64,000 nucleotides of DNA. Source: Squalus acanthias. Its lineage: Eukaryota. The stretch lies in assembly GCA_030390025.1 (NCBI GenBank), contig CM059432.1, positions 74,278,001-74,342,000 of the forward strand, written 5' to 3'. This document shows, one piece after another, positions 44,101 through 64,000 of the stretch; position 1 is the first letter of the stretch, and each line of letters begins with the position of its first letter. Below the pieces are notes generated by a model. It did no database searches and was not told the DNA's origin. It saw only the letters and a list, made by a program, of their open reading frames with translations. The translations under genes and the position numbers were made by a program.

Positions 44101-47100
44101 GCAGAAAGTCTGAGGAAATTCCAGGCCTATGTCTAGTAAGGAGACAAAAAAAGCAAATATGGCCCATGCAATGTTCCCTTTAAACTGCCGGCCGTGCAGC
44201 TCTCTGGACCTGCAGCGCAGCCGCCGGCTTTTCAATAGGAAAAACCGCGCATGCACGGTATTTTGAATGGGTCGCGCAGCCCCTTAAAGGGGCCGCACAC
44301 CCAAAAAAAAAATGAATGGGGACATTTGGGCCCATGTGAACTTCGTAGAAGTTATGTTGTGCAAATGGTTATAAACCAGAACTAAAAGAACAGAAAATTG
44401 CAAAAGTTATCAACAGGAATAAGAAGTTATAAAATAATATTCGAAGTTCAACATTCTCCCTCATTTGTTCATCTTCCGCACAGATTTTAGCTGCCATCAC
44501 TACCACACTACATAAACTGTGCAATCATAGAATGGTTACAGCACAGAAGGAGGCCATTTGGCCCGTTAAGCCCGTGCCGGCTCTCTGCAAGAGCATTTCA
44601 GCTAGTCCCACTTCCCCGTAGCCCTGCAAATTTATTTCCTTCGGTACTTATCCAATTCCCTTTTGAAAGCTACGATTGAATCTGCCTCCACCACCCTCTC
44701 AGGCAGTGAATTCCAGGTCATAACCACTCGCTGCATAAAAAAGTTTTTCCTCATGTCGCCTTTGGTTCTTCTGCCAGTCATCTTAAATCTGTGTCCTCTG
44801 GTTCTCCACCCTTCCGCCGATGGGAACAGTTTCTCTCTCTCTACTCTGTCTAGACCCCTCATGATTTTGAAAACTTCTATCAAATCTCCTCTTAACCTTC
44901 TCTGCTCTAAGGAGAACAACCCCTGCTTCTCCAGTCTATCCACGTAACTGAAGTCCCTTATCCCTGGAACCATTCTTGTAAATCTTTTCTGCACCCTCTC
45001 TAAGGCCTTCACATCCTTCCTAAAGTGTGGTGCCCAGAATTGGACACAATAGTCCAGTTGAGGTCGGGCCAGTGTTTCATAAAGGTTCATCGTAACTTCC
45101 TTGCTTTTGTACTCTATGCCTCTATTTATGAAGGTCATGATGCGGAGATGCCGGCGTTGGACTGGGGTGGACAAAAATGAGAAGTCGCACAACACCAGGT
45201 TATAGTCCAACAGATTTATTTAAAATTGCAAGCTTTCGGAGCTATCGCCCCTCTTCAGGTAAAGTTACAATGAGTGAATCTACAAGGAAAGATTGTATCT
45301 CTGCATTTTCTGTGTTTATATTCTGTGAACTTTTGTAGATTCACTCATTGTAACTTTACCTGAAGAAGGGGCGATAGCTCCGAAAGCTTGTAATTTTAAA
45401 TAAATCTGTTGGACTATAACCTGGTGTTGTGCGACTTCTCATTTCTATTTATGAAGCCCAGGATCACACATGCCTTTTTAACTGCTTTCTCAACCTGCCC
45501 TGCCACCTTCAATGATTTGTGCACATATACCCCCACGTCTCTCTGTTCATGCACCCCCTTTAGAATTGTACCCTTTATATTGCTTCTCCACGTTCTTCCT
45601 ACCAAAATGTATCACTTCGCACTTTTCTGCGTTAAATTTCATCTGCCACGTGTCCACTCATTCCACCAGCCTGTCTGTGTCCTCCTGAAGTCCATCACGA
45701 TCCTCCTCACTGTTCACTATACTTCCAAGTTTTCATCTACAAATTTTGAAATTGTGCCCTGTACACCCAAGTCCAAGTCATTAATATATATCAAGAAAAG
45801 CAGTAGTCCTAGAACCGACCCCTGGGGAACAGTCCGAAAAACAACCATTCACCACTACTCTCTGTTTCCTGTCATTTAGCCAATTTCGTGTCCATGCTGC
45901 CGCTGGCCATTTTATTCCATGGGCTTCAACTTTGCTGGCAAGCCTATTATGTGGCACTTTATCAAATGCCTTTTGGAAGTCCATGTACACCACATCAACC
46001 GCATTGCCCTCATCAACCCCCTCTGTTTTGTCATCAAAAAACTCAATCAAGTTAGTTAAACACGATTTGCCTTTAACAAATCCATGCTGGCTTTCCTTAA
46101 TTAATCCACACTTGTCCAAGTGACTTACTTATGTCCCGGATTATCATTTCTAAAAGCTTCCCCACTACTGAGGTTAAACTGACTGGCCTGTAGTTGCTGG
46201 GTTTATCCTTACACCCTTTTTTCTCCCAGTCCTCACTGCATATGTGCGGCCTGTTCTGGAATTATGTTGCAGTTCACTCCAATTAGCAGCTTATTCTGTT
46301 AGCATAACATTCTGCTCTGTTTTATTGCTTTCTTCCTTGGTTAAATCTTGTTCAAATTTTTACTCTGTTGCTGGCTTTAAAAGTTTCACTGATTTCTGCA
46401 TGTTGTGTTGATTTATGACTTTCAAGCATGCTATGTCTTTAAGTTTGTTTGAGATGTAAAGTGTTGCATCGGACAAAAACCTCCTCCAAATACATAGTTG
46501 AATTAATTCACAAGATTAGTCCCAAATCCAAAGCACCTGGCCATGTAGCATTCTGCAGTGACTCTCCAGGCTATGGAAAAGTGTTGGAATCTTGTTGTAA
46601 ACTCAAAAACTCTTGGCTTTAGAGTATGACATTTCGAACAGGATTAGGGTGTCATTATTGAGTTTGTCCTTTCCTACTGAAGCCCTGAGTAGTACCTTAT
46701 TGAAGCATAATTCAAATTGCTGTTTGACTATCCATCTGGCTGGTGCCCCAGCAGCCATCAATTTAGCACTTATTATAAGGTGGTAGTAGGGATCCTATTC
46801 CACAAGTGGTAGTATCCCTTCCGCACCTCACCAGTTTGGATAGTAACTATTATTCAACTGTAAGGGGGAATCAAGACTTTGAAGCCTTGATATTCTTTTC
46901 TGCACCGGGCATGGGTGCTAGTCAACTGTAGCACATCTGGCTCTACATGTATTTTCAGGTTAGTACCACAGCCCTGATATGCTCCTTACAGTGGTCTGCC
47001 CCTAGCATTGAGGGCAGAAAAGCAGCAGCTGTTGCAGGCCTGAGCAAGAATGGCTATCGACTGTAAGGGCCTTTTGGCTGCTTTTCAAAAACAGAGGCTT

Positions 47101-61544: not shown

Positions 61545-64000
61545 TCTATTTATGAAGCCCAGGATCACGTATGCTTTTTTAACCGCTTTCTCAACCTGCC
61601 CTGCCACCTTCAACGATTTGTGCACATATACCCCCACTTCTCTCTGTTTATGCACCCCCTTTAGAATTGTACCCTTTAGTTTATATTGCCTCTCCTCGTT
61701 CTTTCTACCAAAATGTATCACTTCGCACTTTTCTGCATTAAATCTCATCTGCCATGTGTCTGCCCATTCCTCCAGCCTGTCTTTGTCCTCTTGAAGTCTA
61801 TTTTGCTGTTCGCTATACTTCCAAGTTTTGTGTCCTCTGCAAATTTTGAAATTGTGCCTTGTACACCCAAGTCAAAGTCATTAATATATATCAAGAAAAG
61901 CAGTGGTCCTAGTACCAACCCCTGGGGAACACCACCATGTACCTTCCTCCAGTCTGGAAAAACAACCGCTCACCACTACTCTCTGTTTCCTGTCACTTAA
62001 CCAATTCTGTATCCATGCTGCCACTGTCCCTTTTATTTCATGGGCTTCAACTTTGCTGGCAAGCCTATTATATGGCACTCTATCAAACGCCTTTTGGAAG
62101 TCCATGTACATCACATCAACCACATTGCCCTCATCAACCCTCTCTGTTACTTTATCAAAAAAATCAATCAAGTTAGTTAAACACGATTTGCCTTTAACAA
62201 ATCTGTGCTGGCTTTCCTTAATTAATCCACACTTATCCAAGTGACTGTTAATTTTGTCCCGGATTATCGATTCTAAAAGCTTTCCCATTACCGCGGTTAA
62301 ACTGACTGGCCAGTAGTTGCTGGGTTTATCCTTACACCATTTTTTGAACAAGGGTGTAACATTTGTAATTTTTCAGTCCTCTGGCACCACCCCCGTATCT
62401 AAGGAGGATTGCAAATTATGGCTAGTACCTCGACTATTTCTTCTTTCACTTCCCTCAGCATCTATGGATGCATCCCATCCGGTTCTGGTGACTTATCTAC
62501 TTTAAGTACAGGCAGCCTTTCTAGTACCTCCTCTATCAATTTTTATCCCATCCAGTATCTCAACTACCTCCTCTTTCACTATGACTTTGGCAGCATCTTC
62601 TTGGTAAAGACAGATACAAAGTACTCAGTGCCTCAGCCATGCCCTCTGCCTCCATGCACAGGACTCCTTGTTGGTCCCTAATTGGCCCCACCCTCCTCTT
62701 ACTACCCGTTTACTAGTTATATGCCTATAGAAGACTTTTGGATTCCCTTTATTTTAGCTGCCAATCTATTCTCATATTCTTTCTTTGCCCCTCTTATTTC
62801 CTTTTTCACTTCCCCTCTGAACTTTCTATATTCAGCCTGGTTCTCACTTGTATTCTCAACCTGACATCTGTCATACGCCTCCTTTTTCTGCTTCATCTTG
62901 ACTATCTCTTTCATCATCCAAGGAACTCTGGCTTTAGTTGCCCTACCCTTCCCCCTCGTGGGAATGTACCTCGACTGTACCCGAACCATTTCCTCTTTAA
63001 AGGCAGCCCATTGTTCGATTACAGTTTTGCCTGCCAATCTTTGATTCCAATTTACCCGGGCCAGATCCATTCTCAACCCACTGAAATTGGCCTTCCTCCA
63101 ATTAAGTATTTTTACTCTAGATTGCTCCTTGTCCTTTTCCATAGCTAATCTAAACCTTATGATATTATAATCACTGTTCCCTAAATGTTCCCCTACCGAC
63201 ACTTACTCCACTTGACCCACCTCATTCCCCAGAACCAGATCCAGTAATGCCTCCTTCCTCGCTGGGCCGGAAATTTACTGATCAAGAAAGTTCTCTTGAG
63301 CACACTTCAGAAATTCTTCCTGCTCTCTGCCCTTTTCATTATTACTATTCCAGTCTATGTTAGGATAGTTGAAGTCCCCCATTAATCACTGCTCTATAGT
63401 TCTTGCACCTCGCTGTAATTTCCCTGGAAATTTGCTCCTCTATATCCTTCCCACTAGTTGGTGGCCTATAGAATACACCTAGTAGTGTAATGGCACCTCT
63501 TGTTTCTGAACTCTAACCAAATAGATTCTGTCCTTGACCCCTCCAGGACATCCTCTCTCTCCAGCACTGTAATATTCTCAATCAATACTGCCATCCCACC
63601 TCCTTTCTTTCCTTCCCTATCTTTGCTGAACACCTTTATATCCAGGAATATTTAGTACCCAATCCTGCCCTTTTTTGAGCCAGGTCTCTATTATCGCCAC
63701 GGCATCATATTCCCACATGGCTATTTGCACCTGCAGCTCACCAATCTTATTTACCACGCTTTGTGCGTTTACACACATGCACTGTAAACCTATCTTAGAC
63801 CTTCTTGTATTCTCTCTTAGTCTGACCCCACTTAATACCTTACTATTTCTTACTCTAGTGCTATCTGTCTCTCCCAATCCTTTGTGCAGTTTGTTTCTCC
63901 TTTCTAATGCTACATCCTGGTGCCCATTCCCCTGCCAGATTAGTTTAAACCCTCCCCAACTGCACTAGCAATCCCCCCTGCGAGAATATTGGTCCCAGCT

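Follow-up and report, generated by a model that had tools for sequence, protein, structure and literature searches.

A Penelope-like element hot spot within CR1 in Squalus acanthias and a loose palindromic target motif as its likely cause

The 64,000-nt stretch of the Squalus acanthias genome analysed here (the window; GenBank assembly GCA_030390025.1, contig CM059432.1, positions 74,278,001 to 74,342,000 of the forward strand) contains two copies of a Penelope-like element (PLE) inserted at the same position of two separate copies of another repeat. We take this host repeat to be CR1, a label that goes back to a first, sequence-only reading of the window rather than to comparison with named references. 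The CR1 position is a true insertion hot spot: genome-wide, 1,523 exact junctions of the tail-less end of the PLE (837 on one strand and 686 on the other) were found at it, alongside 2,197 empty sites with the same CR1 anchor. The site is shared by the two inserts most likely because it represents, in thousands of CR1 copies, a near-best match to a loose palindrome that the element prefers throughout the genome, with insertion proceeding by nicking of both strands and priming at both nicks; we assign this explanation a probability of about 0.8. If so, a loose motif alone is enough to produce a very strong hot spot within another repeat.

With about 19% of the sites filled (from a hand count of exact matches, 66/100 among the junctions listed, together with exact-match patterns), enrichment over the per-base rate amounts to approximately 15,600-fold. 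The strong sequence preference that the sequence-only reading had proposed for this position is borne out by these numbers, and the genome-wide check suggested there returned enrichment. At such a fill rate, two filled sites in one window are unremarkable (approximately 4% for a given pair). Repeated use is precise to the base: when a free gap of 40 nt was allowed between junction and CR1 anchor, all 100 among the matches listed (of 437) fell on this one position, and yet most copies of the element reside elsewhere. The insertions also occurred independently, as had been claimed. Among 49 filled sites (37 chosen by site, 11 unselected and one from the window), 47 different insert lengths between 58 and 3,720 nt were counted; the inserts lie in either orientation and come from many subfamilies. 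Of 30 loci, 24 have a second duplication no more than 1.5 kb away, and all 24 differ in length. The features of the two inserts, of a third copy and of the hosts are as follows.

45121..45132 (+), insert 1, left target-site duplication, 12 bp; the G at 45133 is assignable to host or element
45133..45285 (-), insert 1, arm from the tailed start site (start codon of the element, 40-nt tail, terminal repeat)
45284..45443 (+), insert 1, inverted arm from the tail-less start site, older (A-type) subfamily
45356..45393 (+), insert 1, minimal hammerhead-type motif (CUGAnGA...GAAA, palindromic stem III), motif class according to the available text of PMC4209133
45444..45455 (+), insert 1, right target-site duplication
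61234..61245 (+), insert 2, left target-site duplication
61246..61534 (-), insert 2, 5'-truncated terminal repeat from the tail-less start site, youngest (G-type) subfamily
61535..61544 (+), insert 2, 10-nt target-like filler (TATTTATTTA) at the truncated end
61545..61556 (+), insert 2, right target-site duplication
57473..57610 (no strand), third copy, outside CR1, with flanking apparent duplications; insert at 57487-57596
44523..46222 (-), host CR1 copy 1, 3' part of open reading frame 2 (ORF2) and 3' untranslated region, interrupted by insert 1
61089..64000 (-), host CR1 copy 2, interrupted by insert 2

The duplicated sequence TCTATTTATGAA has four exact matches in the window, at 45121, 45444, 61234 and 61545, where 0.66 would be expected by chance with one mismatch permitted, and a 30-mer typical of the Penelope family occurs at 45184 (+), 45406 (-), 57493 (+) and 61254 (+). 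When the insert is excised in silico, the site lies within the CR1 ORF2 reading frame on the minus strand. The sequence-only reading was thus right about the 12-mer (four copies), the family (three copies) and the reading frame of the host, and the differences between the inserts noted there were confirmed. In addition, the two inserts are oppositely oriented relative to their start sites. The left end of insert 1 is tailed and its right end is tail-less and inverted, the two arms meeting with a 2-nt overlap, whereas insert 2 has a tail-less end only, on the left. The hosts are separate CR1 copies, identical at 837/914 aligned bases (91.6%; family median 92.4%), and reverse transcriptase (RT)-type ORF2 fragments were found in the hosts and in one sister copy. 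The 3' part of host copy 2 resumes at 59505-59884, past a second CR1 in opposite orientation (window 59885-61088), which splits this host.

Target motif

Target preference was studied with unselected loci, which were picked regardless of target; the sample is not fully random, as it comes from two contigs (C1 and C2) and was in part reduced by requiring fixed bases at one or three distant flank positions. For these, 201 empty sites were rebuilt, of which 186 remained after cleaning; dropped rows comprised L151, in which a duplication had been wrongly called for insert 2 of the window, and duplications over 14-16 nt (tandem-repeat hosts). Double entries (L123, L268, L322) were removed from the count of CR1 locations but are still doubled in the counts of end pairing and arm length. 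Seven loci (L024, L075, L083, L086, L095, L104, L213) are insertions into a single family of tandem repeats, and the apparent duplication at some of them is 21-25 nt long.

Target-site duplications measure 11-14 nt in 186/201 cases, with a mode of 12. A motif matrix was built from 139 unselected sites, one per cluster, with the hot-spot cluster left out. It contains 5.8 bits of information and reads approximately CnMTGyY / 12 AT-rich bases / RrCAKnG, i.e. C at -7, T at -4, G at -3 and a pyrimidine at -1, followed by the AT-rich 12-nt core and the mirror image. The motif is palindromic: the correlation of the matrix with its own reverse complement is 0.74, compared to -0.31 to 0.06 for 20 shifted controls. 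Held-out sites score a median of 5.4 bits (n=65), against a background mean of -6.2. The CR1 hot spot reaches 13.9 bits (bootstrap 12.2-15.5), a score found at just one of 506,515 background positions, and is the best site in 4.5 kb of host sequence, with a runner-up at 8.65. This score predicts an enrichment of approximately 10,700-fold, where approximately 15,600-fold is observed. For a site at +452 in the same CR1 family (7.2 bits), about 6 junctions and 100-fold enrichment were predicted beforehand; the outcome was 3 junctions against 4,788 empty copies, or about 92-fold. Sister CR1 families with a different sequence are hit 15 nt away instead.

The third copy in the window consists of a tail-less arm and a short inverted tail between 14-nt apparent duplications, and the 12-nt core of its site scores 6.5 bits (top 0.2%). 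The word ATGAA, which this duplication had been thought to share with the CR1 site, does not hold as a link between them, as ATGA there represents the start of the duplication overlapping the element's own end. As a target signal the word was ruled out, since the flanks hold most of the information (9.1 of 13.9 bits).

Most insertions lie outside CR1 ORF2 (118/186), in line with the earlier remark, made from the third copy, that any preference is not absolute. The hot-spot site and its homologues form the largest cluster but comprise only 10/186 insertions, 142/186 sites were seen once, and the hot spot as an exact 13-mer takes about 3% of insertions. Together with the 3 junctions in 4,788 copies at the site 452 nt away, this does not agree with the proposal that the element is CR1-targeting and site-specific.

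The element and its route of insertion

Both inserts fit truncated copies of an abundant Neptune-type PLE. The family 30-mer is found 90,712 times in the 3.71-Gb genome, and the family size is approximately 50,000 insertions; the nearest named proteins come from sharks (81-94% identical). An uninterrupted frame of 892 amino acids is present in two full-length, partial-tandem copies, L154 (contig C1, 51.83 Mb) and L156 (C1, 91.77 Mb), both of which sit inside the same CR1 hot-spot site. The single ORF of L156 matches RVT_1 (E 1.4e-8), with the catalytic aspartates in 57/57 aligned relatives, and the best matches of the predicted RT fold (pLDDT 89) are TERT (telomerase) structures. It is followed by a CX4CX2C linker whose cysteines C753, C758 and C761 are invariant in the alignment. 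A CX2-5CxxC linker between RT and endonuclease belongs to the definition of the Neptune clade in the available text of PMC8557442; as this linker is common to Nematis too, a Neptune/Nematis type fits equally. The GIY-YIG and CCHH residues Y792, Y805, G807, R816, E866, C785, C796, H820 and H836 are conserved in 53-55 of 52-55 rows or in all rows; Pfam GIY-YIG gave no match for the query protein itself, although it is listed for many relatives, and a sequence search found no solved structure for the element protein.

Terminal pseudo-repeats, an optional 30-40-nt tail and inverted copies are all present. Copies end at either of two points approximately 40 nt apart, the tailed end at the start codon and the tail-less end. 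The core motif of a putative hammerhead-type ribozyme was detected in 352/485 junction loci, with covariation in stem I (TCAC/GTGA versus TTAC/GTAA); a search of Rfam returned no hammerhead match, its only results being sub-threshold hits of hairpin type. The most frequent end point of both arms lies 75-90 nt inside the terminal repeat, a little beyond the ribozyme motif, and may mark the 5' end of the RNA. Because the arms run past the predicted cleavage site, the template appears to be RNA that the ribozyme had left uncut.

Both ends were recognisable in 145/190 unselected entries (three loci entered twice), and in 145/145 of these a tailed end is paired with a tail-less end in inverted orientation. 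Without the requirement for a duplication, 144 mixed pairs, no tailed pairs and three tail-less pairs were obtained, the latter joining separate elements. Microhomology is in excess at the junctions with both target 3' ends (1.85 versus 0.59 nt, n=107; 1.44 versus 0.45 nt, n=82). Arm lengths are correlated (rho 0.72, n=134), and the arms mostly join with an overlap of 0-4 nt.

We propose that two endonuclease domains, probably in a dimer, would read the two half-sites of the palindrome and nick the two strands with a 12-nt stagger that leaves 3' overhangs. By pairing over 1-4 nt, the overhangs would then prime reverse transcription, one of them at the tailed start, i.e. the start codon, and the other at the tail-less start 40 nt away. 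The two cDNAs, made approximately simultaneously, would be joined head to head in a repair step; failure of one primer would give a single-armed copy such as insert 2. Joint action of two endonuclease and two RT sites is suggested by the symmetric target, the fixed stagger and the priming at both ends, and we infer an asymmetry which assigns one start to each end.

Subfamilies and alternative explanations

The youngest subfamily accounts for 92/402 unselected junctions, and its arms differ at 1/1,358 bases compared to 64/5,600 in older groups. Its motif is sharper, with frequencies of 0.85 for T at -4 and 0.90 for G at -3 versus 0.54 and 0.48 in older groups (26 versus 114 sites), and contains about 10 bits versus 5.5, a figure inflated by the small sample of 26 sites. 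Young-type copies make up 68/100 among the junctions listed for the window's CR1 site and 3/3 at the predicted +452 site, but only 3/10 of the unselected hot-spot cluster when sister CR1 families are included. At a second hot spot (7.3 bits with the general matrix, 1.7 bits with the young one), their share is 1/95. Three further CR1 hot spots were used by the young subfamily only in this sample (L002/L006/L012/L019/L023; L068/L211/L248/L256/L257; L028/L084/L139). Between the young and one older group, fixed amino-acid changes are concentrated in the linker plus endonuclease (15/152 residues versus 13/423 upstream, p = 0.002), whereas the contrast with a second older group was not significant (6/152 versus 4/251).

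Several observations weigh against the palindrome as a complete explanation. The second hot spot, for which about 110-fold enrichment was predicted, is filled approximately 1,100-fold (95 versus 12,727), and because of this approximately tenfold underprediction the matrix must be regarded as incomplete; microhomology or the palindromic core may add to target choice. Conversely, the young matrix (26 sites) overpredicts the +452 site about sixfold (approximately 19 versus 3 junctions). CR1-type ORF2 is enriched overall (68/186 insertions versus 150/662 control windows), and its share is higher in the youngest subfamily than in older ones (23/45 versus 44/139). Only one end was recognisable in 45/190 unselected insertions, the 19% occupancy depends on the hand count and exact-match patterns, and all inference is drawn from old genomic copies. 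Finally, 1,332 junctions of an unrelated DNA transposon lie 5 nt from the window's CR1 site, and local DNA structure or chromatin may thus contribute.

The CR1 bias of the young subfamily is the best evidence for the targeting idea of the sequence-only reading, according to which CR1 serves as a self-renewing safe harbour. In its selective form, the specificity of the element would have been tuned to conserved CR1 ORF2 codons as a harmless and abundant landing place, most of all in the youngest subfamily. This agrees with the young insertions in CR1 ORF2 and at recurring sites (19/45), with the young-type excess at the hot spot, and with the sharper motif and the fixed changes. However, 22/45 young insertions lie outside CR1 ORF2, several of them at sites of 10-13.7 bits, other CR1 positions are nearly untouched, and both the endonuclease contrast and the 10-bit figure carry the restrictions given above. 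Moreover, the hosts are old: identity among 30 empty hosts is 86-97% (283 pairs), so that they are far older than the youngest inserts and were probably no longer renewing when the youngest burst of the element occurred, which does not support the self-renewing harbour. A weak form of the CR1 preference may stand, i.e. a partial bias of the youngest subfamily; targeting as a strategy or a selected safe harbour is unsupported by the data here, and we consider such selection unlikely. A related reading is somewhat less doubtful but still tentative: the PLE might be in the course of becoming site-specific, an asymmetric dimer making a concerted 12-nt staggered cut in a long palindrome and one cDNA from each fixed start, with rapid changes in the young linker and endonuclease that sharpened the motif towards conserved CR1 codons and brought about a tenth of its copies to one CR1 position.

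The head-to-head structure might alternatively stem from self-priming, i.e. fold-back on an antisense template as for rotifer Penelopes, a route to which head-to-head Penelope ends were attributed earlier in the available text of PMC3846280; the motif explanation of the hot spot would be unaffected. Self-priming would account for the two arms usually carrying the same sequence variant (74/130 pairs versus 3 expected). It agrees poorly with outer ends that both adjoin the duplication, at fixed start sites and with microhomology in excess, with either arm being the longer one (71 versus 43 of 156), and with some arm pairs that differ in ribozyme stem variants, as if derived from two RNAs. On balance, self-priming seems slightly less probable still than selection for CR1. 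A strict single-RNA model with a trailing tailed arm was likewise unsupported, the tailed arm being longer in 43/156 cases.

It is still less probable that this stretch of CR1 draws insertions of any kind by its structure or chromatin rather than through base reading by the endonuclease. At window 2375-3194, a third CR1 copy harbours, at a distance of 5 nt from the Penelope site, a Harbinger-like element of 820 bp that has terminal inverted repeats and a 3-bp duplication (TAT). The interiors of the 1,332 copies at this junction differ, which makes two unrelated element classes with a hot spot in these few CR1 codons. This coincidence and the tenfold miss of the matrix at the second hot spot would suit an attractive structure. 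The precision to a single base does not, nor do the high hot-spot score obtained from a matrix trained on other sites, the shift by 15 nt in sister CR1 families (cluster 4) and the difference in site use between subfamilies (young-type 1/95 versus 68/100 among the junctions listed). Spread of a few insertions from one composite CR1-plus-insert master, by segmental duplication or by homing-like gene conversion, has a negligible probability: host and insert similarity are weakly correlated (rho 0.18), which shared age would also produce, but gene conversion would give identical inserts instead of 47 lengths in 49, both orientations and many subfamilies are represented, and where inserts share an identical diagnostic stretch, the median identity of their hosts is only 91%, so that descent of all copies from a single master, raised earlier as a check, did not emerge.

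Two other features of the window lie apart from these questions. Exon-like frames at 55209-56081 and near 57960, for which no Pfam or PDB match as a host-gene exon was found, may belong to a chromatin remodeller of the CHD family (CHD7-like), which would place the inserts in introns. A 4.4-kb GC-rich minisatellite with a 19-bp unit extends over 24793-29185.

Comparison with known systems

Repeated insertion at one position of another mobile element is known from element-targeting long interspersed nuclear elements (LINEs) such as Xenopus Tx1L. These LINEs are site-specific by means of another type of endonuclease; the shark PLE differs in that approximately 95% of its insertions lie elsewhere. 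Hot spots of one element inside another which reflect target motifs are already known from the human genome, where single-position hot spots in older elements were used to derive motifs, as was done here (Levy et al. 2010, PMC2836564); the available text of that study covers Alu, L1, long terminal repeat (LTR) and hAT elements and no Penelope.

As far as the available text of PMC8557442 describes them, the endonuclease-containing (EN+) PLEs of the Neptune clade resemble the shark element in their single ORF, telomerase-like RT, CX2-5CxxC linker, C-terminal GIY-YIG domain with CCHH, terminal repeats and inverted insertions. In contrast to the microsatellite bias given there for Neptune and Naiad, the shark element prefers a loose palindrome of 26-28 bp with duplication of the 12-bp core, and the sole precise PLE targeting in that text concerns an endonuclease-lacking group in 28S rDNA.

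On the target choice of PLEs, the one in vitro study reported only a short AT preference. PAc, a Poseidon PLE of Anolis carolinensis, cuts and extends both strands in vitro and is predicted to form a dimer (Frangieh et al. 2024, PMC11167929; available text here and below). PAc and the shark element have in common two start sites bounding a 30-40-nt tail. PAc uses uncleaved ribozyme RNA as template, as the shark element would, judging from arm extent in genomic copies. For PAc, a short ATT preference is reported and the start site is described as non-homologous to the cut DNA, whereas in the shark element the motif is long and symmetric, the stagger is fixed, microhomology is in excess and one start of each kind is strictly paired with the other. 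No report of a palindromic PLE target, of strict start-site pairing, of a shark PLE hot spot in CR1 or of a PLE structure was found in the openly readable literature (a scope that leaves aside subscription papers, Repbase and the supplements of the anole paper). The family described here supplies a preferred substrate, predicted 12-nt 3' overhangs, a start-site rule for each end and uninterrupted genomic ORFs, which makes the mechanism directly testable, and natural specificity variants mapped to about 15 residues.

A parallel to the proposed route is the dual or twin priming of L1 (Meyer et al. 2010, PMC2837659), in which both nicks prime cDNA and an inversion between duplications results, as suggested for the shark element. 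According to the available text, dual priming is a rare and speculated variant in L1, whereas in the shark element it would be the majority route (145/190) with two fixed starts. The CR1 site of S. acanthias represents a real, strong and motif-driven hot spot of a known element class, with mechanistic detail.

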